A stretch of DNA of 38,729 bases from a virus. Lineage: Duplodnaviria > Caudoviricetes. Shown here piece by piece: positions 2 to 35,398 of the stretch. The notes beneath the pieces were generated by a model. That model was not told where the DNA came from. It made no database searches and was given only the letters and a program-made list of their open reading frames with translations. The stretch covers positions 1 through 38,729 of IMG/VR virus record IMGVR_UViG_3300005837_000042; one strand, written 5' to 3'. The translations under genes were made by a program, and so were the position numbers. The stretch's first letter is position 1. Every line of letters starts with the position of its first letter.

Positions 2-18
2 ACTTAACTCAGTTAACT
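2..18. promoter_or_regulatory. Motif A copy 1 (ACTTAACTCAGTTAACT), putative repressor site
   Basis: One of 7 near-identical copies; immediately upstream of the AAAGGA RBS of the HTH gene. Confidence 0.7.
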
Positions 19-35
19 ATAAAGGAACTAACAGC

Positions 36-326
36 ATGAACTATTCTGTAGCATTTAAAATGCCTGAAGAAACAGGTCGCTTTCAATCACCTATGTTGCC
101 GACAGTACGCCCACAAAGAGGTACTGGTCGCGGCTCTCAATACTCAAAGGCTGAACAGAAGCGCATCGTTGAACACCTACTTGTCCACGCTATCCGCGCT
201 GAAGAGTTAGCCGAACACTTCAAGATGTCACTCGCTTCTGTCTACAACTGGAAGCGTGACTACCTGATGGGTATGTACGCTGACGAAGTGATTTACAATC
301 ACACTATCGCTTTCCGCCGCTCTTAA
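36..326 (+). CDS. Helix-turn-helix DNA-binding protein (homeodomain-like/HTH_Tnp_1-like)
   Basis: YSKAEQKRIV...RAEELAEHFKMSLASVYNWKRDY is a typical HTH pattern; RBS AAAGGA upstream. Confidence 0.75.
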   Translation: MNYSVAFKMPEETGRFQSPMLPTVRPQRGTGRGSQYSKAEQKRIVEHLLVHAIRAEELAEHFKMSLASVYNWKRDYLMGMYADEVIYNHTIAFRRS

Positions 327-352
327 TGGGTTGGGGATATTTTCTAGCAGGG

Positions 353-380
353 GTGTGGGGCTACGGCCTCATACTTTTTT
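353..380 (+). terminator. Intrinsic terminator after HTH gene
   Basis: Stem GTGTGGGGC/GCCTCATAC, cUACGg tetraloop, T6 tract. Confidence 0.8.
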
Positions 381-423
381 GTATCTGGGTTTGGATACAC
401 CTATTCACCGTTTTAGAGGTAAT

Positions 424-669
424 ATGATGACTACGAATGAAATCAAAAAAGGTATGCGCTTCAAGCTGGCAAATGGCTGGTGGGCTACCATGATGGATAA
501 CAAGCGGGGTAATATCCGCATGGCAGAGGTTGAGGGTCTGTACACAGAGATTGGAAGTGTATATGCTCACGACATCATTTCTTGTGAACAGGACGGTGTA
601 CTACACACCATTGCCCTGACAGACCAACAAAAATCACACGCTCAAACGGTGCAACAGCTTGGTTTGTAA
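424..669 (+). CDS. Hypothetical early protein (81 aa)
   Basis: ATG 424/427 after AGAGGT RBS; shorter than the tracked ORF 331..669. Confidence 0.75.
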   Translation: MMTTNEIKKGMRFKLANGWWATMMDNKRGNIRMAEVEGLYTEIGSVYAHDIISCEQDGVLHTIALTDQQKSHAQTVQQLGL

Positions 670-954: not shown

Positions 955-1296
955 ATGTCGAAGGAAATTAACCGACTACTTATTGCCTTGGAACAGTTCA
1001 GGGCTATAAATCCAAATATGCCTGTTCAACAGGTTCAGACTTTTCTTTATGTCTGCAAACACGAACAAGACGAGGGCGGCTGTAATGTCAGAGATTTGGC
1101 AACCGCCCTTGACTATTCTTTAGCATCCGCATCAAGGAACATTGCCGCGTTTAGTGAAGTAACTCGCCATAAGAAGCAGGGGCCAAACCTTCTAGAGGCT
1201 AGAGAGGACTTCTATAACCGCGCTTATAAACGGATATCCCTTACAGAAGGGGGCCGCCGATTACGAAATACATTACAGGAGTTAGTAGCAACATGA
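955..1296 (+). CDS. MarR-like winged-helix transcriptional regulator (candidate repressor)
   Basis: QQVQTFLYV...VRDLATALDYSLASASRNI...EDFYNRAYKRISLTEGGR is a wHTH with MarR wing signature; ATGA-coupled to integrase. Confidence 0.85.
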   Translation: MSKEINRLLIALEQFRAINPNMPVQQVQTFLYVCKHEQDEGGCNVRDLATALDYSLASASRNIAAFSEVTRHKKQGPNLLEAREDFYNRAYKRISLTEGGRRLRNTLQELVAT

Positions 1297-2285
1297 CGGT
1301 ATCTCAAAGAGGTAAAGGCTGGCAAGCATATGTCCAGCACGAAGGTAAGCGTTACAGACGCACGTTTTCTACACACGCAGAGGCTTCACAATGGGAAGTG
1401 TTGGCTAGGAATAGCCTTATACTTGGTAAGCCACTTCCTGAGTTAACTGAGTTAACCTCTGGCGTGGGTAGTGGGTGGACGTTAGGCCAAGCGGCAGAAC
1501 GTACTTTTCGGATGCGGTGGAAGGAAAGCCGCTCCGAGAAGACCCACCTGATTAACATGAGGAAGAACCTCGATTACTTTGGGGACAAATGTCCCCTGAG
1601 TAACATCACCACTGAAGCCATTGATGACTTCATACTGCACCTGAAGGACAAGCGTCTTTCAGGTTCTACGATTAACCGTGTCCTGATGAACTTATCTCGC
1701 ATACTGCGTACTGCCAGAGAGTACAACAAGATGGACACGCATCCTGTTATTCACAGACAGCCAGAGGGGGAACACCGTCTGCGCTGGTTGAATGATAGCG
1801 AGGTTGATAGGATGATAGTTGCGGCCCAAGAGTTTGGGTACTTGACGTTGCGGGATGCCATCATAGTTGCTGTAGACACTGGGGTAAGACGCGGTGAACT
1901 ACAGCGTATTAAGAAAGATGACATAACGAGACAAGGACTAGGCGTTTGGGAATCCAAAAACATGACGGGTAGGATTATTCCGCTGACCAAACGTGCCAGA
2001 GGTGTACTGGATATGCGTGATGGAGACTTCCTGTTTCCACAAAACGAGTTCATTCGTTCCGCGTTTGACCGCATCAAACATCACTGTGACTTGGGTGCTG
2101 ACGTTGTTTGGCATACCCTGCGTCATACTTTCGCTTCCAGACTTGTGCAGAAGAACGTACCTATACAGGTTGTGCAAAAGTTAATGGGGCATAAAACTAT
2201 ACAGATAACTATGCGCTATGCTAAGATACATGACGATAACTTGATATCAGCAATCAGTGCGATAGATAATGTATCGACTGCGTAA
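1293..2285 (+). CDS. int: Tyrosine recombinase/phage integrase
   Basis: Catalytic R (TGVRRGEL), K (ESKN), HxxR (HTLRH), H (LMGH), Y (TMRYA); N-terminal arm-binding-like domain. Confidence 0.96.
   Translation: MTVSQRGKGWQAYVQHEGKRYRRTFSTHAEASQWEVLARNSLILGKPLPELTELTSGVGSGWTLGQAAERTFRMRWKESRSEKTHLINMRKNLDYFGDKCPLSNITTEAIDDFILHLKDKRLSGSTINRVLMNLSRILRTAREYNKMDTHPVIHRQPEGEHRLRWLNDSEVDRMIVAAQEFGYLTLRDAIIVAVDTGVRRGELQRIKKDDITRQGLGVWESKNMTGRIIPLTKRARGVLDMRDGDFLFPQNEFIRSAFDRIKHHCDLGADVVWHTLRHTFASRLVQKNVPIQVVQKLMGHKTIQITMRYAKIHDDNLISAISAIDNVSTA
1440..1457. promoter_or_regulatory. Motif A copy 2 (GAGTTAACTGAGTTAACC) inside integrase
   Basis: Encodes ELTELT in the interdomain linker. Confidence 0.7.
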
Positions 2286-2314: not shown

Positions 2315-2402
2315 GCGCGGGTGGCGGAATTGGTAGACGCAACGGGCTTAAAACCCGTTATCTTTCAAAGGTGTAGGGGTTCGAGTCCCCTCCCGCGCAC
2401 CA
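2315..2402 (+). tRNA. tRNA-Leu(TAA)
   Basis: Acceptor GCGCGGG/CCCGCGC, discriminator A, encoded CCA; anticodon arm ACGGG-CTTAAAA-CCCGT; long variable arm; T arm AGGGG-TTCGAGT-CCCCT. Confidence 0.95.
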
Positions 2403-2419: not shown

Positions 2420-2448
2420 TTGAAATCCACTCTGGTAAGTGTTAAAGA
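2420..2448 (+). promoter_or_regulatory. Candidate host sigma70 promoter for RNAP with motif B in its spacer
   Basis: TTGAAA-N17-TAAAGA; AATCCA-CTC-TGGTAA (2424-2438) covers the spacer. Confidence 0.45.
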
Positions 2449-2536: not shown

Positions 2537-2553
2537 ATTAATGGACATTATAG
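2537..2553 (+). promoter_or_regulatory. Phage RNAP promoter P1 (ATTAATGGACATTATAG)
   Basis: Repeated at 5034, 13857 and 38508, all at gene boundaries; resembles SP6 ATTTAGGTGACACTATAG. Confidence 0.8.
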
Positions 2554-2584: not shown

Positions 2585-5008
2585 ATGACATCTCTCTTAG
2601 AAACACAGAGAAAACTAGAAGCTGATATGCAGACCAAGGGCATTGAGTATTACCGCTCTGAGGTTCGCAAGGCACAAGAACAGAATAATGAATCTACTAC
2701 CATGTATGGTATTCTCGCTATGAAGCGTAGTGTGGATTCCGTGACGAATACCATTGAGACTTTTCTTGATGAGGCATTCACAGGCAGGGCTGGTAGGCTA
2801 TCTTCTGCTGGACACTTATTGTCCCTTATTGAACCAGAGGTAGCCGCATACCTTTCCCTAAAGTCAGCCATTGATGGCGTAAGCAAAAACCAGACACTTA
2901 CGAAGTGTGCTATGGCTATTGCTGGTATGCTGGAAGACCAGTTCAAGTTCAGTATGTTTGAAGAGAAAGAACCTCATTGGTTTCGCCGCATCAAAGAGGA
3001 TGTCAATAAGCGTACCAGCAATAGGTATTTCCGCCGCTATGCTATTATCCACACCATGAACAAGAAAGCACTCATTGACCATGAGCCGTGGAGTAAGCAA
3101 GAGAAGATGCACCTTGGTTGTAAGCTTATCGACTTAATCATAAAGGCTACTGGTTTGTTTGAGTTGACCACACATACCTTTGGTCGCACCAAACGTGTTC
3201 TATATCTCGCACCGACTGAGAAGACCCTGAACTGGATTGAGTCCATCAACGAGCAAGGTGAGGTCATTACGCCTCGCTATATGCCCTGCGTGATACCACC
3301 GCGTGATTGGCATAGTCCATTTGGTGGTGGCTACCATACTCGCCACATACGCCCACTTCCGCTGGTCAAGACGGTTAACCGTAGGTATCTGGAAGAGATT
3401 GAGCATCACGATATGCCAGAAGAGTACAAGGCGATTAATGCCCTACAGAAAACTAAGTGGGTTGTTAACAAGCCTGTTCTGGATGTGATGAAGAATTGTT
3501 GGGACTCTGGCGATAGCTGGGCTGGGCTACCACAGAGAGACAGGCTGTCTTTACCACCTTCCCCCTTCCCGAATATGAAGAAGGAAGATATGTCGGAGAG
3601 CCAGCAACTGCGCTTCCGTGAGTGGAAACACGCGGCATCTCGCGTTCATCAGGCTAATGCACGTTTGAATAGTAAGCGGCTACAGCTAGTACGCACAGTG
3701 GCTATGGCTCAAAAGTTCTCAGAGTTCGATGAGTTCTACTTTGTCTGGCAGAATGATTTCCGTGGACGCAAGTATGTAGTGAGTAGTTTCCTGACCCCGC
3801 AAGGGCCAGACTATTCCAAAGCGTTACTGACGTTTGCCAACGGCGTAACCCTGACTGAAGAAGGGGAATACTGGCTGGCTGTACACGGTGCTAACTGCTT
3901 CGGTGAGGATAAGGTATCCTTTGATGACCGCCGCGCATGGGTACAAGAGAACCAGAACAACATTATTGATGTTGCTACTGACCCTTATGAGAACAAGTGG
4001 TGGACACAAGCGGATGACCCGTGGATGTTCCTCGCGTTCTGCTTTGAGTGGGCTTCGACAGAGATTGGTGACCTGACGCACCTTCCCGTTAGTCTGGATG
4101 GGTCTAACAACGGCCTACAGCATCTGAGTGCTATCCAGCGTGACTACCGTGGTGGTGAGAGTACTAACCTAGTTCCGCATGAGACACCTCGTGATATCTA
4201 CCAAGATGTTGCTGATGCTGTTATTGAGGTACTGGAGAGCCGTAAGGCGCACGATACAATGGCACAGCAATGGCTGGAGTTTGGTGTCTCTCGCAAGACA
4301 ACCAAGCGGCCTGTGATGGTAGTGCCATACGGGGGGCGTATCTATTCCACCCGTCAGTATATTGAGAACTACATTGTAGACATGATTGAGGGCGGTCATT
4401 CCAGCCCTTGGGGGCATGACCTGTTTGAGCCGTCACACTACCTAGCTGATATTGTCTGGGAGTGTATCTCAAGAGTGATTACCTCTGCCCGTACTGTGAT
4501 GGATTGGTTACAGGATATCTCAAGCAAAGTATCTGCTGAGAACCTTCCAGTGATTTGGGAAACACCTACGAACTTCCTAGTTCACCAGATGTATCCCGAA
4601 ACTCGGTCACGCCGTATCACTACGCATATCGACAATAGTCTGATAAAGCCACAGGTTCGTGAACAGAACTTTGGTAAGTCTGACCGCCGCCGTGCAGTGA
4701 ATGGTGCATCACCTAACTTTATCCACTCTCTGGATTCAGCGGCTATGACCTTGACTATTAATAGGTGTGCTGATGAGGGTATTAGTGACTTCGCAATGGT
4801 GCATGACTCGTATGGTGTTCATGCTTCCAACGTGCCTAGTCTGTACCGATTGACGAGGAGTGCTTTCGTGGATATGTACATGGGCAATGATGTTCTAAAA
4901 GACTTCGCAAATTTCGCATTAGAAGTTCTGGATACAGTACCTGTACCACCAGAAAAAGGTGACTTGGATTTATCTAAGGTTACCGATAGTAAGTACTTCT
5001 TTGCTTAA
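2585..5008 (+). CDS. T7-like single-subunit DNA-directed RNA polymerase (gp1)
   Basis: Motifs DFRGR, DGSNNGLQH, RKTTKRPVMVVPYG, PNFIHSLD, HDS, C-terminal YFFA; start placed at ATG 2585 after AGGAG. Confidence 0.98.
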   Translation: MTSLLETQRKLEADMQTKGIEYYRSEVRKAQEQNNESTTMYGILAMKRSVDSVTNTIETFLDEAFTGRAGRLSSAGHLLSLIEPEVAAYLSLKSAIDGVSKNQTLTKCAMAIAGMLEDQFKFSMFEEKEPHWFRRIKEDVNKRTSNRYFRRYAIIHTMNKKALIDHEPWSKQEKMHLGCKLIDLIIKATGLFELTTHTFGRTKRVLYLAPTEKTLNWIESINEQGEVITPRYMPCVIPPRDWHSPFGGGYHTRHIRPLPLVKTVNRRYLEEIEHHDMPEEYKAINALQKTKWVVNKPVLDVMKNCWDSGDSWAGLPQRDRLSLPPSPFPNMKKEDMSESQQLRFREWKHAASRVHQANARLNSKRLQLVRTVAMAQKFSEFDEFYFVWQNDFRGRKYVVSSFLTPQGPDYSKALLTFANGVTLTEEGEYWLAVHGANCFGEDKVSFDDRRAWVQENQNNIIDVATDPYENKWWTQADDPWMFLAFCFEWASTEIGDLTHLPVSLDGSNNGLQHLSAIQRDYRGGESTNLVPHETPRDIYQDVADAVIEVLESRKAHDTMAQQWLEFGVSRKTTKRPVMVVPYGGRIYSTRQYIENYIVDMIEGGHSSPWGHDLFEPSHYLADIVWECISRVITSARTVMDWLQDISSKVSAENLPVIWETPTNFLVHQMYPETRSRRITTHIDNSLIKPQVREQNFGKSDRRRAVNGASPNFIHSLDSAAMTLTINRCADEGISDFAMVHDSYGVHASNVPSLYRLTRSAFVDMYMGNDVLKDFANFALEVLDTVPVPPEKGDLDLSKVTDSKYFFA

Positions 5009-5011
5009 TCT

Positions 5012-5033
5012 ATTCCACTTTGGTAACAGGTAC
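5012..5033. promoter_or_regulatory. Motif B copy (ATTCCACTTTGGTAACAGGTAC) abutting promoter P2
   Basis: 18/19 identical to 8442-8460. Confidence 0.65.
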
Positions 5034-5050
5034 ATTTATGGACACTATAG
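5034..5050 (+). promoter_or_regulatory. Phage RNAP promoter P2 (ATTTATGGACACTATAG)
   Basis: Consensus copy just after the RNAP stop, heading the replication module. Confidence 0.85.
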
Positions 5051-5051
5051 C

Positions 5052-5186
5052 ATGACTATTTCAAACACCGAAACGCTCATTGCGTTTTACAAGATTCTGG
5101 TTCTTCGGGATATCGCTATCCCAACGGACTTGATTGCCAAGCTTCTTGAAGCTGGCGTTGATGTCTCCGCCTTGGCGCGGAGTTAA
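5052..5186 (+). CDS. Small hypothetical protein (44 aa), near-leaderless
   Basis: MTISNTETL...IPTDLIAKLLEAGVDV; fills the gap between P2 and SSB. Confidence 0.65.
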   Translation: MTISNTETLIAFYKILVLRDIAIPTDLIAKLLEAGVDVSALARS

Positions 5187-5197
5187 CTAAGTTAACC
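5180..5197. promoter_or_regulatory. Motif A copy 3 (GAGTTAACTAAGTTAACC)
   Basis: Directly upstream of the SSB RBS (AGGAG 5202-5206). Confidence 0.7.
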
Positions 5198-5212
5198 TAT
5201 TAGGAGACAAGT

Positions 5213-5836
5213 ATGGGTTTTCCAACCACTGCTAAAGGTAAAGCCTTTTGGACTTATGCCTTTACCCCCGATACCAAATTTGATGCTGATGGTAAGTATC
5301 ACATTAAGCTTCGTATTGGCGGTCAGGAAGCTATCGACTTCTCAAAGTATGTCGATGACTTGATTGACCAATCTCTTGCGGAAGCAACAGAGAATAATCC
5401 TCAGAAGAAGATTAAGAAGAACAATACCGTCTACACTGAGGTTCTTGATGACAACGGTACACCTACTGGTGAACTTGAATTTCAGTTCAAGCAGAAGGCT
5501 ACAATCACCAAGAAAGATAAGTCCGTTATGAATATGCGAGTGGCTGTGTTCGATGCCAAAGGCAAGCCAATTACTGAGCCTGTCGAGGTTGGTAACGGCT
5601 CTACAGTCAAAGTTGCATATGACCCATTCAAGTGGGTAACCCCTACTCTGGGGGCTGGCGCGACACTACGGTTCAAGGGACTACAGATTATTGACCTTGT
5701 AGAACGTGGCGGGTCTAACGCTGATGGCTTCGGCTTCGGAGAAGAAGACGGGTATTCGCACAATAACAATAATAATAATAGCGATGATAATAATGAGTTC
5801 TTCCAAGAAGCGTCTGACCAAGACGAAGACTTTTAG
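5213..5836 (+). CDS. ssb: Single-stranded DNA-binding protein (T7 gp2.5-like)
   Basis: PDTKF, VGNGSTVKV, GLQIIDLVE, acidic tail ending in DF; position in module. Confidence 0.93.
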   Translation: MGFPTTAKGKAFWTYAFTPDTKFDADGKYHIKLRIGGQEAIDFSKYVDDLIDQSLAEATENNPQKKIKKNNTVYTEVLDDNGTPTGELEFQFKQKATITKKDKSVMNMRVAVFDAKGKPITEPVEVGNGSTVKVAYDPFKWVTPTLGAGATLRFKGLQIIDLVERGGSNADGFGFGEEDGYSHNNNNNNSDDNNEFFQEASDQDEDF

Positions 5837-6170
5837 GTCTAAGTTTGAGCAAACAGTTGCCCAAGATTTAGATAAGCAAAAGGTAGACTACGAGTACGAG
5901 GCACACCGCCTACCGTATGTAGTAGAACGAAACTACCTTCCAGATTTCAGGTTACCATCTGGGGTGTTTGTAGAAGCTAAAGGCTACTTCAAATCTGCTG
6001 ACCAACGAAAGCATAAGCTTCTGAAGGAACAGAGTCCTCACCTTGAGGTTCGCTTTGTCTTTCAGAACGCTAGTGGTCGTGTTCAAGGAAGCAAGCTGAG
6101 TTGCGCTGAATGGTGTGACAAGCACGGCTTTCTGTATGCAGAGAGCGTTGTACCAAAGGAGTGGCTATGA
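5793..6170 (+). CDS. Endonuclease I / Holliday junction resolvase (T7 gp3-like); start uncertain
   Basis: FRSKFE, YLPDF, VEAKG, RFVF, WCDKHGF. Confidence 0.92.
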   Translation: MSSSKKRLTKTKTFRSKFEQTVAQDLDKQKVDYEYEAHRLPYVVERNYLPDFRLPSGVFVEAKGYFKSADQRKHKLLKEQSPHLEVRFVFQNASGRVQGSKLSCAEWCDKHGFLYAESVVPKEWL

Positions 6171-6601
6171 GCAAACGCACAGAGACTGACTTTATTGTCA
6201 TACATTGTTCAGCAACCAAGGCTTCCATGAATACGGATGCCAAGGAGATTGACCGATGGCACAGACAAAAGGGTTGGCGAAAAATCGGATACCATTGGGT
6301 CATCAGACGCGATGGGGTCGTTGAAGAAGGTCGTGAACTAGATGAAGTAGGCGCACACGCGAGGGGTTATAACTCCAAGAGCATTGGCATCTGCATGGTT
6401 GGCGGCATTGATGACAACGGCGAACCTGAAAATAACTACACTGATGAGCAATGGAAATCATTGGAAGAACTGGTGAACCAGATGAAGCTACCGTATCCCG
6501 ATGCGGAAGTTCTGGGTCACTGTGACCTTCCTGATGTTGCCAAAGCTTGTCCGTGTTTTGATGTGAGGGAATGGTGGACAGCAACGAAAGCAATTTCGTA
6601 A
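6167..6601 (+). CDS. N-acetylmuramoyl-L-alanine amidase (T7 gp3.5-like lysozyme)
   Basis: IVIHCSAT, IGYHWVI, GAHARGYN, GHCD, KACPCFDV. Confidence 0.96.
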   Translation: MSKRTETDFIVIHCSATKASMNTDAKEIDRWHRQKGWRKIGYHWVIRRDGVVEEGRELDEVGAHARGYNSKSIGICMVGGIDDNGEPENNYTDEQWKSLEELVNQMKLPYPDAEVLGHCDLPDVAKACPCFDVREWWTATKAIS

Positions 6602-8202
6602 CCCACACACCTTGTCCAGCGTGTCCATCGTCTGACGGTTTTGCACTGTACGATGATGGGCATGGCTGGTGCTTTGTTTGTGGTCATTACGAAGGAACAT
6701 CTGATGATGAGATAAGGAGTAAGCCCAAAGTGAACCATGATTTAATTCAAGATGGTGAATGCAAGACCCTTGGTAAGCGAAAGATTACTCTGGAGACAAC
6801 CAAGAAATGGGGATACCAAGTTGGCAAGTTCAAAGGTAAGCCCGTACAAATAGCAAACTATAAGGACAGCGATGGAAACACCGTTGCCCAGAAGATACGT
6901 TTTCCTAACAAAGACTTCCTATTCATTGGGGATACCAAGTCTGCTGGCCTGTATGGTCAGTGGTTATGGGGGGATGGCGGCAAGAGAGTGGTAGTGACCG
7001 AAGGTGAGGTCGATGCCCTTTCTGTATCACAAGTTATTGGCAAGACATGGCCTGTAGTATCCGTTGGCACGGGTAGTAAGGGTGCAAAGAAAGCCATACA
7101 GAAAGAACTTGAGTGGCTCTGCAAATTTGAAAACGTAATACTAATGTTTGACAATGATGAGGCTGGTAGGACTGCGGCAAAAGAATGTGCGGCTGTTCTC
7201 CCTGCTGGTAAGGCTAAGATAGCCTCACTGCCTCTGAAGGATGCCAACGAGATGTTGGTAGCTGGTCAAACAAAAGAACTCAGTACCGCCATGTTTGAGG
7301 CTAAGTCGTATCGGCCTGACGGTATTGTGAACGGTAGTGAACTCTGGGATGTCGTTACTAAAGAAGATGACACCCAATCATTTGAATACCCCTACGCTGG
7401 TCTTAATTCCAAGACTTTAGGTATCCGCAAGGGGGAGATTGTAACTGTGACCGCTGGTAGCGGCATAGGGAAAAGCCAACTCTGTAGGGAGTTTGCTCAC
7501 TTCCTGTTACAGCAAGGCGAAAGCGTGGGTTACATAGCCCTAGAGGAGTCCGTAAAGCGTACCTCTCTGGGTTTGATGTCTCTTGCTATTAACAAGCCAC
7601 TGCACCTCGGCAATACAGAGGTAAGTAGTGAGGAGTTAAAAGAAGCCTTTGATGCAACTCTGGGTACTGGTCGTGTCTATATGTATGACCATTGGGGTAG
7701 CACCGACAGCGACAATCTCATGGATAAAATTCGTTACCTAGCTAATGGCTGTGGCTGTGGCTGGGTTGTACTTGACCATATCTCAATCGTGGTATCAGGC
7801 ATGGATAACGGTGATGAACGCCGCATGATTGACAATACGATGACCAAGCTAAGAACCTTGGTTGAAGAGGTAAAGGTTGGGTTGATACTGGTATCTCACC
7901 TCAAGCGTCCAGAAGGTAAAGGACATGAGGAAGGTGCTAGAACTACCCTTGCCCAACTCAGAGGCTCGGCTGGTATTGCTCAACTCTCAGATGTTGTTCT
8001 GGGCTGTGAGCGTGACCAACAGGACAAAGAGATGGGTAATGTCACCGTTGTGAGGGTTCTGAAGAACCGTTGGACAGGTGAGACAGGTGTAGCCTCTATG
8101 CTGGAATACGATAAGTACACAGGCCGCATGAACGAACTAGCCGTAACCGACATTGACGATGAGGTTACATTTAAGGACAGCACAAAAAATGAGGAGTTCT
8201 AA
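6571..8202 (+). CDS. DNA primase/helicase (T7 gp4-like)
   Basis: CPAC...CFVC zinc finger, TOPRIM EGEVD and FDNDEAG, Walker A GSGIGKS, LDHIS, LRGS, KNR. Confidence 0.97.
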   Translation: MVDSNESNFVTHTPCPACPSSDGFALYDDGHGWCFVCGHYEGTSDDEIRSKPKVNHDLIQDGECKTLGKRKITLETTKKWGYQVGKFKGKPVQIANYKDSDGNTVAQKIRFPNKDFLFIGDTKSAGLYGQWLWGDGGKRVVVTEGEVDALSVSQVIGKTWPVVSVGTGSKGAKKAIQKELEWLCKFENVILMFDNDEAGRTAAKECAAVLPAGKAKIASLPLKDANEMLVAGQTKELSTAMFEAKSYRPDGIVNGSELWDVVTKEDDTQSFEYPYAGLNSKTLGIRKGEIVTVTAGSGIGKSQLCREFAHFLLQQGESVGYIALEESVKRTSLGLMSLAINKPLHLGNTEVSSEELKEAFDATLGTGRVYMYDHWGSTDSDNLMDKIRYLANGCGCGWVVLDHISIVVSGMDNGDERRMIDNTMTKLRTLVEEVKVGLILVSHLKRPEGKGHEEGARTTLAQLRGSAGIAQLSDVVLGCERDQQDKEMGNVTVVRVLKNRWTGETGVASMLEYDKYTGRMNELAVTDIDDEVTFKDSTKNEEF

Positions 8203-8441
8203 TGCAAGAGCCGCAGAAAAGCCTAATCAACGTCCAAGTCGATGTTGATGTACTTCTACTGAAAGAAGGTATTCAGGTCACAATGTATACCAGTGAGGAT
8301 GATGAGGAAGGTACTGAAGTACTTATTTCGCTAGATGACCTAGTGAAGGAAGTAATTGAGAATGCCAGCCCAGATGAGAACGAAGCTATTGCCCACAATC
8401 TTATCGAAGCATCAAAGGATATTTTGTGTAACCTAACGTAA
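8202..8441 (+). CDS. Hypothetical acidic protein (79 aa)
   Basis: GAGGAG RBS; TAATG coupling to gp4. Confidence 0.75.
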   Translation: MQEPQKSLINVQVDVDVLLLKEGIQVTMYTSEDDEEGTEVLISLDDLVKEVIENASPDENEAIAHNLIEASKDILCNLT

Positions 8442-8460
8442 CCACTTTGGTAACAGTTAC
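8439..8460. promoter_or_regulatory. Motif B copy (TAACCACTTTGGTAACAGTTAC) upstream of DNA polymerase
   Basis: Near-identical to 5015-5033. Confidence 0.65.
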
Positions 8461-8478
8461 TCCAGTGAGAGGACGAAT

Positions 8479-10251
8479 ATGAGACTACTGTTTGACATTG
8501 AAACAGACGGTTTATTGGATACCGTAACAAAAATCCACTGCGTTGTAGCCCGTGATATCGACACTGATGAAGAGTATGTTTGGGTAGGTAACAAGGTTAA
8601 AGACTGTTGGAACTTTCTCAATAAAGCAGACGTATTAATTGGTCACAATATTATGGGCTTTGATATCCCTGTTCTCGAAAAGATATTTCGTAGGCGGTTA
8701 ACTCAGTTAACTCTCAGAGATACCTTGGTTATGACCAGAACTATCTGGCCTGACCGTAGAGACAAGGACTTCAAACTATTCCGTAGCGGTAAGCTACCAC
8801 CAAAGATGATTGGCTCACATAGCTTGAAAGCTTGGGGTCATCGTATTGGTGAATATAAGGGTGAGTTTGGTGAAACTACTGATTGGGCGGAGTTTAGCGA
8901 TGAGATGCTTCAGTACTGCCGTCAGGATGTCAAAGTAAACGTCAAGCTATTCAAGAGGATTGAGGCACTGAACTACAGTGAGGATGCCATTCAGCTTGAG
9001 CATGACATACACCGAATACTACTCACACAGGAATGGGACGGTTTCCCGTTTGATGAGCAAAAGGCACAGGAACTATTCATCGTTCTTAATGAGCGTAGAC
9101 TAGCGATTGAGAGCCAACTGACAGAGCAACAGCCCCCTTGGATACAGGAGACTGAGTTTATACCAAAGGTCAATAACAAGACCCGTGGTTATGTCAAAGG
9201 TGTGCCGTTTATCAAAAAGAAAGAGATACCTTTTAATCCAAACAGCCGTGAGCATATTGCAAGAATGCTTCAAGAAAATCACGGTTGGATACCAGAGGTA
9301 TACACCGAAACGGGATTACCAAAAGTGGACGATAAAGTCCTTAGTGGCTTGGATTACCCCGAAGCTGTTTTGCTATCTGAGTACCTTATGGTGCAGAAGC
9401 GGATATCACAGCTTGCAGAGGGTGAACAGGCTTGGATGAAACTAAGTAAGGATGGAGTAATACATGGTCGTGTCAACCATATGGGAGCGGTTACAAGCCG
9501 CTGTACACACCAAAATCCCAACTGCGCTCAAATCCCTTCGGTCACCGCTCCTTATGGTGAAGAATGTCGTAGTCTATTCTACGCTCCTGACGGCTGGGCT
9601 GTTATGGGTTGCGATGTGTCTGGTCTTGAACTTCGTATGCTTGGGCATTTTGTTGCTAAGTTCGATGATGGCGAATACGCTGACATCGTTATCAATGGAG
9701 ATATCCATACAGCCAATCAACAAGCCGCTGGGCTTCCCTCGCGTAATATGGCTAAGACCTTTATCTATGGCTGGCTTTATGGAGCGGGTTCAGACAAAAT
9801 CGGTAAGATTGTTGGAAAAGGCCGTAAAGAAGGTGAGGCTCTCAAGCGAGAGTTTCTGAAGAACTTCCCAGCTATTAATAACCTGAGAACTGCTGTCACC
9901 AAGGCGGCTAAACGTGGATACCTGATTGCTCTAGACAAGAGACAGATTCCTGTACGCCACGAACACGCATCACTTAACAGTCTACTGCAAGGAAGCGGAG
10001 CGATTATCTGCAAACGCTGGGTTGTTGAGTTCAACAAGTTACTAAAAGAAAAAGGCTACGTCAGAAACGAGGACTACCGTCAGGTGGCCTTTGTCCATGA
10101 CGAAGTACAGATTCTTGTAAAACAAGAACTAGGAGATACTATTGGACAGCTATGTGTCGAAGCAATCAGACGAGCGGGAGAGTATTACAAACTCAGAGTC
10201 CCCCTCACAGGCGAGTACAAACTCGGAAGAAACTGGGCTGAAACCCACTAA
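8479..10251 (+). CDS. DNA polymerase family A (T7 gp5-like) with 3'-5' exonuclease
   Basis: FDIETDG, GHNIMGFD, YCRQDV, DVSGLELR, AKTFIYG, HDE, WAETH. Confidence 0.98.
   Translation: MRLLFDIETDGLLDTVTKIHCVVARDIDTDEEYVWVGNKVKDCWNFLNKADVLIGHNIMGFDIPVLEKIFRRRLTQLTLRDTLVMTRTIWPDRRDKDFKLFRSGKLPPKMIGSHSLKAWGHRIGEYKGEFGETTDWAEFSDEMLQYCRQDVKVNVKLFKRIEALNYSEDAIQLEHDIHRILLTQEWDGFPFDEQKAQELFIVLNERRLAIESQLTEQQPPWIQETEFIPKVNNKTRGYVKGVPFIKKKEIPFNPNSREHIARMLQENHGWIPEVYTETGLPKVDDKVLSGLDYPEAVLLSEYLMVQKRISQLAEGEQAWMKLSKDGVIHGRVNHMGAVTSRCTHQNPNCAQIPSVTAPYGEECRSLFYAPDGWAVMGCDVSGLELRMLGHFVAKFDDGEYADIVINGDIHTANQQAAGLPSRNMAKTFIYGWLYGAGSDKIGKIVGKGRKEGEALKREFLKNFPAINNLRTAVTKAAKRGYLIALDKRQIPVRHEHASLNSLLQGSGAIICKRWVVEFNKLLKEKGYVRNEDYRQVAFVHDEVQILVKQELGDTIGQLCVEAIRRAGEYYKLRVPLTGEYKLGRNWAETH
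8696..8713. promoter_or_regulatory. Motif A copy 4 (GGTTAACTCAGTTAACTC) inside DNA polymerase
   Basis: Reverse orientation; encodes RLTQLT. Confidence 0.7.
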
Positions 10252-10648
10252 GGCAAACCGTAAGAAGTTTGACCTCGACTTGGCTTACGGGCAACTACAC
10301 GAGGATGAGTTTCTGAACATCCTTAAAAACAAAAAAGTAGAGGTAAAGACAGAACGAGATATGTGGTCAAAGACAGGCAACATAGCGATTGAGTTTCAAT
10401 CCTATGGTAAGCCTAGTGGCATCAACGCTACTGAGTCAGACTATTGGGTTCAGAACCTAGCCATAGGTGATGATGTTTATTGCCGACTTCTCTTCTCTGT
10501 TGAGAACCTCAAGAAAATTGTGAACAACCTAGACTTTCATAAGGTGGTTAACGGTGGTGATAACTACGCTTCCCGTATGTACCTACTGAACCTGTCTAAG
10601 CTGTTCTCCACCGATACACTAAAGCTGTATCGTAACTTATCCACTTAG
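10142..10648 (+). CDS. Putative PD-(D/E)XK-fold nuclease; start uncertain, overlaps polymerase 3' end
   Basis: FDLDLAYG...VEVKTE...TGNIAIE...DYW; TTG 10142 follows AGGAG. Confidence 0.65.
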   Translation: MDSYVSKQSDERESITNSESPSQASTNSEETGLKPTKANRKKFDLDLAYGQLHEDEFLNILKNKKVEVKTERDMWSKTGNIAIEFQSYGKPSGINATESDYWVQNLAIGDDVYCRLLFSVENLKKIVNNLDFHKVVNGGDNYASRMYLLNLSKLFSTDTLKLYRNLST

Positions 10649-10662
10649 GCACGAGGTACAGC

Positions 10663-11379
10663 ATGACAACACTTTTAGTCGATGGTGATATTGTGGCTTA
10701 TCAGGCCGCAACCGCCAAAGAACACTCAGTAGATTGGGGTAACGGTCTATGGACGCTCCACTCTTTTGCTGATGAAGTATACGACTATGCGGCTTCCATG
10801 ATTGACCGCTTAGTAACTGAGGCTGGATGCTCAAAGGCTCTCGTTCTTCTTACTGATGGAACTGTGTTCCGTAAGGAGATTGACCCAGAGTACAAGGCAA
10901 ACCGCATTGGTAAGCGGAAGCCTGTCTGCCTACCCCAAGTTCGCAAGATGATGGTCGATAGTATGAAGACCAAGACTACTGATGGTCTGGAAGCTGATGA
11001 CCTTATAGGTATCTTTGCAACCAAATCACCAGATGAATACATCGTCTGGTCACCAGATAAAGACTTGAGACAGATAGCTGGCTCTCACCTCATAGATGGC
11101 GAAGTTATAACCATCACACAGGAACAGGCAGAGCGTAGTTTCTGGATGCAAGTACTCACTGGTGATACCGCTGACAACTACAAAGGCTGTATCGGCATTG
11201 GCCCTGTCAAAGCAGAGAAGATTCTAGATGCTGATGATGGGCTGACTACTTGGCAGAAGGTTGTGAAAGCCTACGAAAAGGCTGGTCAGACAGAAGAGGA
11301 TGCCATCGTGACAGCGCGGCTGGCTCATATCCTGACTTATCAAACCAAAGACATTGTATGGAGTCCACCGAATGACTGA
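10663..11379 (+). CDS. 5'-3' exonuclease (T7 gp6-like)
   Basis: LVDGD, YKANR, LEADD, DKDLRQI, GDTADNYKG, GIGPVKA. Confidence 0.95.
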   Translation: MTTLLVDGDIVAYQAATAKEHSVDWGNGLWTLHSFADEVYDYAASMIDRLVTEAGCSKALVLLTDGTVFRKEIDPEYKANRIGKRKPVCLPQVRKMMVDSMKTKTTDGLEADDLIGIFATKSPDEYIVWSPDKDLRQIAGSHLIDGEVITITQEQAERSFWMQVLTGDTADNYKGCIGIGPVKAEKILDADDGLTTWQKVVKAYEKAGQTEEDAIVTARLAHILTYQTKDIVWSPPND

Positions 11380-11629
11380 TTACGGACGGATAATGCGCGA
11401 GATAGAAGCGGAGAAGATGGAAGATGTGGTCAACAACCCGAAACACTACAACCAAACAGGTGTGGAGTGCATTGACGCAATCAAGGCGCAGACAGGCGAT
11501 GGGTACGAATACTACCTACAAGGAAATATCGCAAAGTACCTCTGGAGATACAGATACAAAAACGGTGTCGAAGACCTCAAAAAAGCACAGTGGTACTTAA
11601 ACAAACTCATAGAGGTGAAGAATGGTTGA
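11372..11629 (+). CDS. DUF3310 / T7 gp1.7-like nucleotide kinase domain protein
   Basis: VNNPKHY...ECIDAI...GNIAKYLWRY..KNGVEDLKKAQWYL. Confidence 0.85.
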   Translation: MTDYGRIMREIEAEKMEDVVNNPKHYNQTGVECIDAIKAQTGDGYEYYLQGNIAKYLWRYRYKNGVEDLKKAQWYLNKLIEVKNG

Positions 11630-11939
11630 CTTCAATACATACCAAAAACAGGCACACCAAACAGCGGTCTATCCCCCAGACATGGGGATGGCCTACTGCA
11701 TCACTGGCCTCTGCGCTGAGACAGGAGAGGTCGCTGACAAGGTGGCTAAGTTCTACCGTGGTGACGGTGAGTTAAACGAGGAAGGACTAAAGAAAGAACT
11801 AGGTGATGTTCTGTGGTTCATAGCTGAACTGTCTACGCACCTTGGTTTTACCCTTCAAGATGTAGCGGAATTAAACCTACAGAAATTAGCAGATAGACAA
11901 CAACGTAATGCCCTAAAGGGCGAAGGGGATAACCGATAG
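11622..11939 (+). CDS. mazG: MazG-like nucleotide pyrophosphohydrolase
   Basis: GLCAETGEV...KELGDVLWF...NLQKL. Confidence 0.88.
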   Translation: MVDFNTYQKQAHQTAVYPPDMGMAYCITGLCAETGEVADKVAKFYRGDGELNEEGLKKELGDVLWFIAELSTHLGFTLQDVAELNLQKLADRQQRNALKGEGDNR

Positions 11940-13808: not shown

Positions 13809-13810
13809 GC

Positions 13811-13828
13811 GAGTTAACTGAGTTAACT
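13811..13828. promoter_or_regulatory. Motif A copy 5 (GAGTTAACTGAGTTAACT, perfect)
   Basis: Intergenic, between the RNR stop and the terminator/late promoter. Confidence 0.75.
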
Positions 13829-13829
13829 G

Positions 13830-13856
13830 GGGCTACCTTCGGGTAGCCCTTTTTTT
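13830..13856 (+). terminator. Intrinsic terminator ending the replication module
   Basis: GGGCTACC-TTCG-GGTAGCCC followed by T7 tract. Confidence 0.92.
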
Positions 13857-13873
13857 ATTTCTGGACATTATCG
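13857..13873 (+). promoter_or_regulatory. Phage RNAP promoter P3, late (ATTTCTGGACATTATCG)
   Basis: Consensus variant right after the terminator, heading the structural module. Confidence 0.75.
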
Positions 13874-13884
13874 GGTTTATATCA

Positions 13885-14070
13885 ATGAAATTATTATCAG
13901 ATACACCACTGGTTACCAACGAAGTCCTTGAGTACCTAATACGTCAGTTTCCCGACAGCTTACCAAAAGGGCAAGCGTGTACGGTTGAGCAGTTACGTTA
14001 TCTTCAAGGACAGCAGAGCGTTATCGAAAAGATGCGCCAACTTAATAAAAATGAAGAGGACGATTACTAA
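13885..14070 (+). CDS. Small conserved protein (T7 gp6.5 position)
   Basis: LEYLIRQFPD...YLQGQQSVIE pattern typical of the pre-portal gene. Confidence 0.7.
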   Translation: MKLLSDTPLVTNEVLEYLIRQFPDSLPKGQACTVEQLRYLQGQQSVIEKMRQLNKNEEDDY

Positions 14071-14312
14071 TGTGTATAGGCGGAAGTACCCCCAAAGCAC
14101 CACCACCCCCAGCCCCACCGCCAGCAATGGCCCCCGCAAAGCCTAGCGTGGTTGACTTCAATGCTGTTGATACAGACGCGGCGAAGATGAAGAAGAAAGC
14201 GGCTGGTAAAAAGAAATTTAGGAATAAGCCAAACCAAAACACCCTTGGAACTTTTACAGGTGCAAGTGGGACAGGTTTGTCAATCCCATCTAAATCTGGG
14301 GGTAAAGTATAA
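14070..14312 (+). CDS. Small basic virion protein (gp6.7/7.3-like) 1
   Basis: MCIGG start, Pro-rich, basic patch, GLSIP C-terminal motif. Confidence 0.7.
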   Translation: MCIGGSTPKAPPPPAPPPAMAPAKPSVVDFNAVDTDAAKMKKKAAGKKKFRNKPNQNTLGTFTGASGTGLSIPSKSGGKV

Positions 14313-14557
14313 TGTGTGGCGGCGGAAGAAAAAAGTCAGCCCCAGCTAAAAAGGCGGCGGCTGTAGCATCCGCATCAACCCCTGTAGCGGCTTCGGCAAA
14401 AGAAGCCCCTGAACAAGAGGGCGGCGCGGCTGTAAACTCAACTCAGCGTAGACGGCAACGTATGGGCAAACGCGGATTCCGTGTGGGCTTAGATGTAAAT
14501 GTCGCAAACGTAGGCGGTGACGGCAAGACAGGCTTAAACATCCCAGAAAGTTCATAG
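14312..14557 (+). CDS. Small basic virion protein (gp6.7/7.3-like) 2
   Basis: MCGGG start, RRRQRMGKRGFRV, GLNIP motif; TAATG coupling. Confidence 0.7.
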   Translation: MCGGGRKKSAPAKKAAAVASASTPVAASAKEAPEQEGGAAVNSTQRRRQRMGKRGFRVGLDVNVANVGGDGKTGLNIPESS

Positions 14558-20398: not shown

Positions 20399-21000
20399 TG
20401 GCACTCCTAGCAACCACAAAACTGGAAGCAGTTAACACCTTGCTTGGCGCAATCGGTGAAGCACCAGTTAACTCAGTTAACTCTGGGTTGGTGGATGCGG
20501 AAACCGCTGAGAAAATTATTGATGAGACAAGTCGAGAAGTGCAGTCCCAAGGTTGGTCTTTTAATACTGACTTTGAGAGAAGCTTCACTCCTGACGGTAC
20601 TAACCAGTTCCCTCTCCCTACGAACATACTGCGTATTGAGATGGCTGAACAACGCACAAGAACATTTGATGTTGTTGCCCGTGGTCACAAGATTTACGAC
20701 AGAGTAAATAGTACTTTCTACTTCGCTCCATCAGTGACTTCTATAAAAATGAATGTAGTTGTATACCTCGACTTTGAGGACTTACCAGAAGCCGCCCGTA
20801 GGTACATCACCATACGGTCTGCACGAATCTTCCAAGACCGTGTTGTTGGCTCTAACGAACTACACGCCTTCCAACAACGAGATGAGTTAGTCGCTCTCGT
20901 AGAACTCAAAGATGCTGACAGTAATGTCAACGATAATAACATCTTTGATAACTACGGGGTGTCATCAATTCTCGACAGATTAGGTGGGAGAGTTTTATAA
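20398..21000 (+). CDS. Tail tubular protein A (T7 gp11-like)
   Basis: LEAVNTLLGAIGEAPVNS, VQSQGWSFN, FEDLPEAARRYI. Confidence 0.95.
   Translation: MALLATTKLEAVNTLLGAIGEAPVNSVNSGLVDAETAEKIIDETSREVQSQGWSFNTDFERSFTPDGTNQFPLPTNILRIEMAEQRTRTFDVVARGHKIYDRVNSTFYFAPSVTSIKMNVVVYLDFEDLPEAARRYITIRSARIFQDRVVGSNELHAFQQRDELVALVELKDADSNVNDNNIFDNYGVSSILDRLGGRVL
20466..20483. promoter_or_regulatory. Motif A copy 6 (AGTTAACTCAGTTAACTC) inside tail tube A
   Basis: Perfect reverse-orientation copy; encodes VNSVNS. Confidence 0.7.
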
Positions 21001-32637: not shown

Positions 32638-32651
32638 GATAGAGAGAAGTT

Positions 32652-34736
32652 ATGACAACAGTTAATCTTGGTAAAGTAGCCTTCTCGTGGAAAGGCGCAT
32701 GGTCAAGTGCTACAACATACTATGAACAAGATGTAGTTAGTCGAGATGGCTCTACTTATGTATGTGTGGCAACGACAAATTCTACTGCGGTAGACCCCAC
32801 GACAACAAACACTGATTGGGAAGTTTTCACTCAAGGCTTCTCAGCATCATCTGCTGGAAACGGTGGTGTTATTTATTCTGATGGTACTAGCTTACAAACC
32901 CTTGCGGCTGGTAATGCTAATCAAGTACTCAAGATAAATAACTCTGGTGTACCCGAATGGTCAGACACAACGTATCGTTCTGGTATGCGTGTTAAACAGT
33001 TATGGGATAACACTCGTTCTGCATACCGTAAGATGATGGTTCTTATGGAAGATGACCTTCTTAAAGTATGGGGTTATAACGGTACTCACTACCAGCTTGG
33101 TCTTGGAAACAACGGTAATAACAAAAGTTACCCTACACGAGTAGCGTTTCCATATGGCTTTGCTGGCGTAAGGGCTATCCCTAATAAGCATGGGACATCC
33201 CCCCACCCTACTGGCTTGATTGTCGATAAGGTGGTAACAGTAGCGGCTGTGAGTGGTTCTGATAAGTTTCATATTGATGGTACAGCTAACCCTACACAGT
33301 TACTTACAAAAGGTACTACCTATAAGTTTGATGTATCAGACTCAAGTGTAGCTGGACATCCTCTTGTATTTAAGGATGGCACAGGGGCCGCATATACAAC
33401 TGGGGTCACAACTTCAGGAACTGCTGGACAAGCAAACGCATACGTTCAGATTGCTGTACCTTTAAATGCTCCTGACAACCTAAGATACTCCTGTAGCGCA
33501 CATGGCGATGGAATGGGTAACACTATTACCACTGTCGAAGCCGCTGGTTGGTATAAGAAGAATTGGGGCATGGACTACGCCTACGTTTCATGGTGTGTCG
33601 ATAAGAGTGGCAACCTGTGGACATGGGGTGCAAATCAACATGGTGAGACAGGTACTGGGAACACAAGTAATGTTTATATCCCTTACAACGCATCAGCAGA
33701 TTCTAATAACTCCATTTATGGTAAGACTGTAGATTATGTTGCCGCACCTTCAGGTACTGCCAATTCTCACATTGGACTATGGATAGTATGTACAGACGGT
33801 ACACTTCACTACTCTGGTTACAACGGTCACGGACAATCTGGTCAAGGTAATACTAATAGCACCAATAACTTTGTACATATTAGTACTCTGTTTTATGACC
33901 AAGTACAGGTCGTTGCTGGTTCTGTAAATTACCCCTTTGTTATCATGTTAGATGAGCAAGGCGTACTCCGCTTTGTTGGTCACTCAGGGTATACAACAAA
34001 CGGCGCGAATACCACTAACGCTTCTATTCCTACAGTTATAGCTTTAGGTAACAATCGACTTGGCAACCCTATGAAGGTTGCTCAAATTATGTGCGTTTCT
34101 TCTCGCGGGGTCTGGATTAAAGACAGCCTTGGTGACATTTACAACTGGGGTAACGATAGTTCTAGCGGCTGGCTTGGTCGCGCCCAGAATGGCCCAAGTA
34201 CATTAGGCAGAGTGATGGACGTAACAACAGCTAATATCATTCAGATTGTACAATCAGGAAATTCCAACGGATATGGTGATTCTTCCTATATGTTAGCAGA
34301 TGATGGCACTGTCTACTCTGCTGGTTACAACGGTCATGGAGCATTAGGTACTGGTAGTACTACTAGCCGAAATACATATGCCGCAATGAACAACCTACCA
34401 ACAACCGCAGGGCAACGTGTAAAGTACATGGTAGCTGGCGGTAGTGATGGTTATCCAAAGTGGCATGGCCTTACAGAAGACGGTAAAGTATTTACTTGTG
34501 GCTATAACGGTAATGGCGGATTAGGTGTCGGTGATACCACCAATAGAACAAGTCCTATAGAAGTACCTATGCCAATGGTATGCACAGATATATGCCATGT
34601 TGGTTATTCGTCAGAACAGGGAACAGCATTCCTCTATGAGGATGGTTCTATGGCTCAGTGTGGCTATGCTGGTTCTAACCAGTTGGCTGACGATGATGCT
34701 GAACGTAGTGACGTTCCTATGACAATCCTATTCTAA
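32652..34736 (+). CDS. Tail-associated RCC1-like propeller protein with inserted cupredoxin-like domain
   Basis: N-terminal WKGAW..ATTY...DVV; repeats GNLWTWGANQHGETGTG, GTVYSAGYNGHGALGTG, GKVFTCGYNGNGGLGVG. Confidence 0.8.
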   Translation: MTTVNLGKVAFSWKGAWSSATTYYEQDVVSRDGSTYVCVATTNSTAVDPTTTNTDWEVFTQGFSASSAGNGGVIYSDGTSLQTLAAGNANQVLKINNSGVPEWSDTTYRSGMRVKQLWDNTRSAYRKMMVLMEDDLLKVWGYNGTHYQLGLGNNGNNKSYPTRVAFPYGFAGVRAIPNKHGTSPHPTGLIVDKVVTVAAVSGSDKFHIDGTANPTQLLTKGTTYKFDVSDSSVAGHPLVFKDGTGAAYTTGVTTSGTAGQANAYVQIAVPLNAPDNLRYSCSAHGDGMGNTITTVEAAGWYKKNWGMDYAYVSWCVDKSGNLWTWGANQHGETGTGNTSNVYIPYNASADSNNSIYGKTVDYVAAPSGTANSHIGLWIVCTDGTLHYSGYNGHGQSGQGNTNSTNNFVHISTLFYDQVQVVAGSVNYPFVIMLDEQGVLRFVGHSGYTTNGANTTNASIPTVIALGNNRLGNPMKVAQIMCVSSRGVWIKDSLGDIYNWGNDSSSGWLGRAQNGPSTLGRVMDVTTANIIQIVQSGNSNGYGDSSYMLADDGTVYSAGYNGHGALGTGSTTSRNTYAAMNNLPTTAGQRVKYMVAGGSDGYPKWHGLTEDGKVFTCGYNGNGGLGVGDTTNRTSPIEVPMPMVCTDICHVGYSSEQGTAFLYEDGSMAQCGYAGSNQLADDDAERSDVPMTILF

Positions 34737-34744
34737 GGGGCAAC

Positions 34745-34927
34745 ATGGTGGAAGAAACTAAAGCGCAGTTAGACGCACATGAGAGAGAATGTGCCATCCG
34801 ATATCAAAATGTCCACGACAAATTGGAAACTCTTGATAAACGGATGTGGCGTTTAGAAGCTATGATTATGGGGTCAACGGTAATTATCGTTGGCCTCTCG
34901 GCTTCTTTAATTATGAAAATCTTATAA
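34745..34927 (+). CDS. Small coiled-coil protein with C-terminal TM helix (XhlA/holin-like)
   Basis: HERECAIRY...LDKRMWRLE followed by hydrophobic tail. Confidence 0.65.
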   Translation: MVEETKAQLDAHERECAIRYQNVHDKLETLDKRMWRLEAMIMGSTVIIVGLSASLIMKIL

Positions 34928-34939
34928 GGGAGCAAGCAT

Positions 34940-35398
34940 ATGTTGGCGGAACTAGCCGCCGCAAATGCCGCCTTTGCGATTATCAAAAAAACGGTCACTA
35001 ATTCTGGTGACCTACTTCGTGCGGGGAAAGCAATCACCAAGTTTGTGGATGCTGAAGAAACCCTAAAGGCACGAGGTAATAAAAAGAAAAACTCCTTCTG
35101 GCGGAAGGTTGGGGGCAATCAAGGCTCTGACCTAGAAGAGTTCATGGCTCTTGAATCCATAAACCAGCAAAAGAAAGAACTTGAACAGGCCATGATTTAT
35201 TGTGGTCGGGCTGGTTTGTATGGCGATTGGGTGAAGTTCCAAAAAGATGCCCGTGTAAGGAGACAGCAAGAAGCCAAAGAACGTAAGCGTAAACAACAAG
35301 AGTTAACTGAGTTAATTCTGGTGACAGTCCTAATAATACTTGGGGGTGGGATTGCCGCTTGGCTTGCGTGGTTATGGCTCACATTTTCACGAGGATAA
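34940..35398 (+). CDS. Hypothetical protein with C-terminal TM helix
   Basis: LILVTVLIILGGGIAAWLAWLW; RBS GGGGAG. Confidence 0.75.
   Translation: MLAELAAANAAFAIIKKTVTNSGDLLRAGKAITKFVDAEETLKARGNKKKNSFWRKVGGNQGSDLEEFMALESINQQKKELEQAMIYCGRAGLYGDWVKFQKDARVRRQQEAKERKRKQQELTELILVTVLIILGGGIAAWLAWLWLTFSRG
35300..35317. promoter_or_regulatory. Motif A copy 7 (GAGTTAACTGAGTTAATT)
   Basis: Inside ORF 34940; encodes ELTELI. Confidence 0.65.

Follow-up and report, generated by a model that had tools for sequence, protein, structure and literature searches.

A dispersed, conserved palindrome and its candidate binder in a temperate-type T7-like phage

The dyad element and its setting

IMG/VR record IMGVR_UViG_3300005837_000042, analysed here over its positions 1 to 38,729 (hereafter, the window), derives from a T7-like phage whose genes for a MarR-like regulator (marR), an integrase (int), tRNA-Leu and a phage RNA polymerase (RNAP) are ordered as in phage LUZ100, and it carries seven copies of a palindromic element that we call motif A. 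The sequencing runs with window DNA are marine metagenomes. Near the left end lie, all on the plus strand, an open reading frame (ORF) resembling a helix-turn-helix (HTH) gene (36..326), whose Pfam matches are weak and under the cut-off, marR (955..1296; phrog_9665), the tyrosine integrase gene (1293..2285), a tRNA-Leu(TAA) gene with the probable attP region (2315..2402), and the sequence TTAATGGACATTATAG (2538..2553), which recurs at 5035, 13858 and 38509 and which, from its position and its likeness to SP6 and T7 promoters, is probably a promoter recognised by the phage RNAP. The window is incomplete: it begins at a copy of motif A and is missing about 3.7 kb of early region, which in the relative L132 extends from terminase to the HTH gene. 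Contigs from sequencing runs with window DNA run through this missing region at even depth.

Motif A is a 17-bp dyad, AGTTAACT-N-AGTTAACT, which all seven window copies match with at most one mismatch. The 17-mers begin at 2, 1441, 5181, 8696, 13812, 20466 and 35301, where the preliminary description of this DNA had placed them. Copy A1 (2..18; like the others, listed without strand) forms the first bases of the window, just upstream of the ribosome binding site (RBS) of ORF 36..326, while A3 (5181..5197) lies just upstream of the RBS of SSB, and A5 (13812..13828) lies past the RNR stop codon and directly upstream of a terminator-like hairpin. The remaining four are inside coding sequences and encode differing peptides, as had also been described: A2 (1441..1457) in a linker of the integrase (ELTELT, amino acids 49-54), A4 (8696..8712) in DNA polymerase (RLTQLT, about amino acids 73-78), A6 (20466..20482) in tail tube A (VNSVNS) and A7 (35301..35317) in ORF 34940..35398 (ELTELI). 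That account had read the element as both a palindrome and a 9-bp tandem repeat. The palindrome holds, and a single 17-bp dyad fits better than the tandem, because the inner TTAAC-Y-N-R-GTTAA is nearly invariant while the outer bases vary; the two orientations it reported reduce to the central base, which is C, G or A on the coding strand.

A search of the window with the 18-mer, allowing up to three mismatches, returned 14 matches (7 sites on 2 strands), against a mean of 0.07 and a maximum of 1 in 100 dinucleotide shuffles. The enrichment also withstood a codon-preserving check, in that the in-gene copies were not reproduced by protein-fixed controls: synonymous resampling gave no site in 1933, one in 66 and two in 1 of 2000 runs. 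Of 500 codon-order shuffles, 491 contained none and 9 contained one. Weight-matrix scores fall from 25-30 bits for the seven copies to 0.9 for the next-best position in the window, which leaves no tail of weak sites; the largest A-free stretch in the window is a 14.8-kb gap. The seven copies had been called genome-wide, and the count is correct for the window, but the window is not the whole genome and the early region of L132 adds six copies that it lacks, two of them paired at the left end and the other four located where early genes meet, in three cases just before an RBS. L132 and a second contig were retrieved independently by a DNA-pattern scan and by a MarR protein scan. CtrA boxes were rejected as the identity of motif A, the spacing within the motif being N5 or N6 and not N7, and the window has no TTAA-N7-TTAA. 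Integrase arm sites were rejected too, since the repeats on either side of the tRNA gene are not motif A.

Conservation and concerted change of motif A

Comparison of 49 metagenome loci and L133 identified the form of the motif seen in the window (N3) in all 11 loci with a MarR identity of at least 56%. At matching places in 4 of 4 loci with 48-49% MarR identity, we found instead GTTAACC-NN-GGTTAAC (N4), with a spacer one base longer. Multi-copy A was absent from all 35 loci with 27-47% MarR identity, three of which had a single N3 match and many of which are short. In a third clade (RNAP identity 63%; G408, G436, G438 and G439) the element is CGTTACA-N-TGTAACG, and it occurs as a left-end pair, at early RBSs, before SSB, at the start of DNA polymerase and after RNR. 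Many of the compared loci are near-identical strains, and the independent clades number three at most. A3 and A5 are retained in all three motif clades, A4 has orthologues in the N3 and N4 clades, and complete relatives carry 12 (G006) and 13 (G407) sites. The conservation in related phages that the preliminary description had anticipated is therefore present, with A-type sites at matching places while the sequence of the motif changes between clades.

The same comparison upholds the suggestion that selection acts on the DNA. The site orthologous to A2 is read in another frame in relatives (ELTELT, EVNRVN and LTAVNS in three sub-clades), which argues for selection on DNA, as do the matching sites despite motif change and the synonymous resampling. 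At the outer positions, pairing is lost in 19 and 21 of 56 sites without being restored by a compensatory change, and this points to DNA recognition and not to an RNA hairpin. Together, the conservation, frame and pairing data back the proposal that a dimeric DNA-binding protein has its target sites dispersed through the genome and support, at the level of sequence, recognition of motif A as duplex DNA by a protein with two-fold symmetry. The early region, which is transcribed by the host polymerase, has the highest density of sites. Late-gene sites have been gained and lost at new positions among relatives; A6, for example, has no counterpart at its position in G006 or G407, which read VNSLT where the window reads VNSVN (two amino-acid differences).

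A strict palindrome finder (7-bp arms, 1 mismatch; nothing in 48/48 simulations) detected no network in LUZ100, Pasto, HTVC019P, CRP-804, Lo5R7ANS or L168 and a weak 4-copy match in HTVC121P, and motif A itself was not found in LUZ100, Pasto, two pelagiphages, CRP-804 or Lo5R7ANS. The looser setting of the finder is uncalibrated and gives codon-driven false families in some genomes, and the motifs it yielded for LUZ100, Pasto and L168 rest on their positions. At two loci (L149, 8022; L151, 2831) an A-type site falls within the loop of a terminator-like hairpin and lengthens its stem, and at L172 (292-847) a long tandem array with a 15-bp period lies upstream of the marR region.

Dispersed dyads of this kind have their closest precedent in Cluster O mycobacteriophages, which carry a 17-bp dyad, TGTTCGG-N3-CCGAACA, that its authors separate from stoperators by its symmetry (PMC4351075; here and below, citations refer to the portions of the papers available to us). 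The likeness extends to the 7-3-7 architecture, near-invariant arms, a genome-wide spread with about a third of the copies in genes and most off promoters, and a greater density at one end, and there too the binder and role are unexplained (PMC4351075). The arms and the phage family differ, and Cluster O genomes have more than 30 copies (PMC4351075) against the 12-13 of our complete relatives. Unlike the Cluster O dyad, motif A resides in a phage with an integrase and MarR, has three variants traceable across clades and co-occurs with a candidate binder. Motif A is a real, well-conserved element of a known but unexplained kind. Dispersed dyad repeats in phages have gone unexplained partly because no binder could be named, and here the question of the binder becomes testable through three natural variants, a clade-matched candidate and genomes that naturally lack marR or the HTH gene. 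No description of motif A was found in the literature searched; Boeckman 2022, which falls outside that literature, may bear on it.

Motif B, MarR and the stoperator reading

A second element, motif B (TCCAC-TT-TGGTA), occurs in sigma-70 promoter spacers in both the window phage and LUZ100. The window copy upstream of RNAP (2426..2437, TCCAC-TC-TGGTA; all B sites are listed without strand) lies in a sigma-70-like promoter spacer (TTGAAA-17-TAAAGA). Two others, after the RNAP stop codon (5014..5025) and upstream of DNA polymerase (8441..8452), have a LUZ100 palindrome at the same place, and a weaker one precedes the exonuclease gene (10640..10651). A -35/-10 arrangement surrounds 7 of 13 B sites against 0 of the 13 A sites tested, and two of the LUZ100 B-like palindromes lie between the -35 and -10 elements of the mapped promoters P1 and P2. 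Similar palindromes (TACAC-NN-GTGTA) are found across distant MarR-bearing relatives, and the MarR helix motif ASRN[IV]xA, common to the marine proteins and present in LUZ100 as the variant CSRNVSA, is constant between clades that differ in motif A. We consider motif B a likely MarR operator. LUZ100 has the same marR-int-tRNA-RNAP layout, and motif B fits the MarR model proposed for that phage (PMC10134795) because of its promoter-spacer position and the conserved MarR helix; the motif is not named in the available portion of that paper. The sites would give concrete form to the lysogeny model proposed for LUZ100 and Pasto, and two networks, B as the likely MarR operator and A, can be told apart in one temperate-type T7-like phage.

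Further copies of motif B lie at 2090 and 4462 in L132 and at 377, 578, 6690, 11570, 13196, 14660, 22151, 34512 and 35001 in LUZ100 (L135). Pasto (L136), whose regulator has a divergent helix, carries AGTCACT-N4-AGTGACT-like sites at 392, 551, 697, 3532, 8767, 8867, 11855, 12369 and 30077, two upstream of the RNAP region and the others dispersed. Motif B, or TCCACTTTGGTA, was rejected as a phage promoter, as its orthologous copies in the N4 clade, including the one after RNAP, have the opposite orientation, and as the directional TTAATGGACATTATAG adjoins it.

The preliminary description had proposed that the MarR or HTH protein binds motif A at stoperators and silences the phage RNAP cascade in the prophage, a reading that we now regard as quite improbable. 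It agrees with the presence of marR, int and tRNA-Leu, with the single A-type site found between tRNA and RNAP in G436, and with a cyanophage MarR homologue that is a DNA-binding dimer able to bind downstream of a start site (PMC9692554). That protein acts on a host promoter, and sites in the phage genome are not reported in the available portion of the paper (PMC9692554). In pairwise comparisons MarR identity also drops from 56-62% to 48% where N3 gives way to N4, a drop not shared by integrase or RNAP; trees nevertheless gave an unresolved three-way split, with the N3 and N4 groups unseparated for both MarR and integrase, so the trend is not co-evolution, and with the marR-less G408 this led us to drop the identities as grounds for MarR as the binder. 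Natural deletions speak against both proteins, since the complete G407 has no HTH gene yet carries 13 sites, and G408 has no marR yet keeps 8 sites of its clade's variant. The predicted co-variation with the MarR recognition helix was not seen, the helix and motif B remaining constant while A changes; G436 itself combines a conserved MarR helix and a B site identical to that of the window with a changed motif A.

The stoperator comparison and the proposed guarding of the RNAP cascade also fall short. Cluster A stoperators (L5 gp71) resemble motif A in being many high-fidelity sites off promoters for which a roadblock role is plausible, but they are asymmetric and oriented with transcription (PMC4351075). 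The immunity repressor is the protein that binds stoperators; motif A is symmetric and apparently does not follow the presumed repressor. In the window, G407 and G006 the stretch between tRNA/attP and RNAP holds no A site, and motif A is therefore not obviously a guard of the RNAP cascade; control of the LUZ100 type differs in the same way, as motif A lies away from the RNAP promoter and persists without marR. Judged from these genomes, the HTH gene is not required for motif A, and MarR, which likely binds motif B, is probably not the binder of A. G408, which shares 83-92% nucleotide identity with G436, lacks tRNA-Leu as well as marR, has a broken B site after RNAP and still has an intact integrase gene; it is apparently a T7-like phage part-way from a temperate to a lytic lifestyle.

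A candidate binder and the proposed role of motif A

The likely best candidate for a binder of motif A is the product of the first early gene (1217-1891 of L132; 224 amino acids), which is missing from the window. An A-type pair lies upstream of this gene in all 11 loci that hold it, with a site directly before its RBS in 8 of the 11, and no homologue of the gene was found in 8 of 8 relatives without an A site that span from terminase to integrase. Its WPKGxLSTYR segment is common to the two TTAAC clades and takes an altered form in the GTTAC clade. The protein belongs to a small family and is predicted to consist of long helices round a compact core with a Lys/Ala-rich tail (pLDDT 73.6, pTM 0.49). 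A fold search with this model gave nothing clear, the best wide match being to a coiled coil (Z 5.1), a single-sequence domain model (pLDDT 52) was too low for fold comparison, and no relative with a solved structure was found by sequence. Atlas placed the protein near DUF3102 and plasmid-partition clusters at 0.78-0.80, values that the tool rates as leads only. A small early ORF elsewhere (L153, 8936-9169) looks ribbon-helix-helix-like by eye and has no Pfam or PHROG match.

Our preferred reading, held tentatively and at somewhat less than even confidence, is that a dimer of the first-gene product binds motif A and damps transcription of early genes by the host RNA polymerase as well as read-through elsewhere. 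The dimer would occupy the roughly 13 sites per genome, the site before the RBS of its own gene giving negative autoregulation, and the sites in early leaders and inside int would slow the host polymerase once the product accumulates. A roadblock role is suggested because the sites are dense in the early region, downstream of promoters, at RBSs, in the gene's own leader and in int, and it is preferred to lysogeny silencing because sites are mostly absent from the RNAP promoter; the role would be Cro-like, after entry, rather than one of prophage silencing. T7 RNAP reads through bound proteins, and sites in middle and late genes would cost little because the phage polymerase passes them. MarR would act separately, via motif B in promoter spacers, as proposed for LUZ100-type phages. 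Motif A would then add to the proposed MarR lysogeny switch a second layer of genome-wide control, an extra one acting on the host-transcribed phase.

Several observations weigh against this reading. The gene and the motif are restricted to one clade, so their co-occurrence counts as one event and not many; L153/G407 and G438 have no site at the first-gene RBS; and the product matches no Pfam or PHROG family. Late-gene sites shift position and spacing is even in G407 and G416 (an unrelated phage described below), which fits coverage better than gene control. For MarR, the loss of the gene in G408 may be recent, the comparison covered a single B site in a contig that is 75% complete, and an A-type site upstream of RNAP in G436 with none in the marR-less G408 is what a MarR link predicts. 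Furthermore, A-like networks occur without a detectable first-gene homologue in at least five phages that lack T7-like genes (G002, G003, G004, G412 and G416), and L166 has an early-region palindrome of its own without the candidate. The scans covered 7, 60, 58 and 27 of 64 collection parts, so that counts of site-bearing phages are lower bounds.

These unrelated networks vary in density. Provirus G002 (IMGVR_UViG_2831482573_000002) has 11 exact sites, several of which immediately precede a terminator or an RBS, while G003 has 9 and G004 has 4. G416 (IMGVR_UViG_3300024187_000014; 40.9 kb) has 42 near-perfect TTAMCT-S-AGKTAA sites, one a terminal duplicate, about 1 kb apart and more even than chance (P=0.0004), and G412 (IMGVR_UViG_3300043403_000031; 43 kb) has 79 degenerate TGTTAAC-N3-GTTAACA sites about 550 bp apart, most of them in ORFs. 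Comparison by blastp identified no protein common to the T7-like clade and these phages, and a profile of the candidate found no homologue of it there in a search of 17,671 six-frame segments. In G002 a site lies at nearly each gene boundary of a leftward operon (4816-17771) with antirestriction (Lar, Antirestrict), glutamine amidotransferase and amidoligase genes; G416 has HK97-type capsid and portal genes, two adenine methylases and no ParB match; G412 has 20-bp tandem repeats at both contig ends; and the early-region palindrome of L166 (3188-5313), TGAGAAT-N-ATTCTCA, also occurs in L162 (97-408), in pairs.

Since the unrelated networks and the L166 palindrome lack the first gene, a host factor or convergence would fit, and the networks may be convergent phage repressor sites or host-factor sites. 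A dimeric host protein that binds motif A, with variants following host species, is in our judgement possible but not probable. Similar TTAAC...GTTAA networks in unrelated phages that share no protein are what it would produce, and the different tRNA-Leu of each T7-like clade is compatible with different hosts, but no more than two exact sites were found in any of 401 genomes sampled from the phylum of a Piscinibacter metagenome-assembled genome (MAG), only 19 of which had any (the true host is perhaps unsampled), and the single-site loci scanned, 7 of 8 retrieved, showed no partition genes. A common proteobacterial host factor is accordingly an unlikely binder. We give still less credence to, and consider very improbable, a role of the element as an RNA hairpin targeted by a nuclease or translational repressor, or as a seam at which early-gene cassettes recombine. 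In favour of such roles, many copies are next to an RBS or terminator and some fall within terminator hairpins, a translation-repressor cluster ranked 17th in Atlas (0.78), and recombination between dyad repeats is described in Cluster O (PMC4351075); the hairpins are nevertheless weak (-3.7 to -5.4 kcal/mol), their outer pairs are often broken uncompensated, the variants are strand-symmetric, and in-gene copies cannot be cassette ends.

The remaining alternative keeps the first-gene product as the binder and makes the sites centromere-like, position-independent landing pads from which it coats, compacts or shields DNA entering left end first, as T7 DNA does; we judge it possible but not probable. 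All-or-none sites with no weak ones, late sites gained and lost at new places despite amino-acid changes, the regular placement of sites in G416 and in G407 (largest gap, P=0.010), the 79 degenerate sites of G412, the Lys/Ala-rich tail and the Atlas leads would all be compatible with such pads. Against this, spacing is not regular in G006 (P=0.63), the window has its 14.8-kb gap, and many sites are right at RBSs (23/52 by a loose pattern that includes false calls). The repABC parS sites offer a parallel, being all-or-none dispersed palindromes, and their consensus, GTTNNCNGCNGNNAAC (PMC9040568), accommodates the 16-bp core of those N4 sites that have a GC centre. The window's N3 form is odd-centred and cannot fit this even-length consensus. 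ParA and ParB genes were not detected in the T7-like phages with motif A, and no ParB family member was found among 46 window ORFs (PHROGs), 30 (Pfam) or the relatives' early genes. Vibrio parS2 may be a further parallel; its sequence is not given in the available portion of PMC3141006. A broader version, in which diverse phages mark their genomes with evenly spread all-or-none palindromes as loading sites for an early-made coating or shielding protein, is in our view improbable. If true, a single strategy, so far unrecognised, would have separate examples in the T7-like clade, in Cluster O and in the unrelated marine phages that carry 42-79 sites, and such palindromes would have their first identified reader in the first-gene product.

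Other features of the window bear on its host and integration site. Of the 64 six-base palindromes, 44 are absent from the window, those containing GATC and CCGG among them, while GTTAAC is present, which points to a host with many restriction systems. A search aimed at identifying the host found no MarR relative in the genome contigs searched, and three betaproteobacterial MAGs matching the tRNA 3' end, two of them labelled goat rumen/omasum, were not accepted as hosts. Between 2285 and 2530, TGTGGCG-type repeats flank the tRNA gene on either side and CTTAAAA recurs just downstream of it; these are candidate integrase arm sites and attP core, respectively, and the tRNA-flanking repeats take another form in the N4 clade (TGTGACAA).

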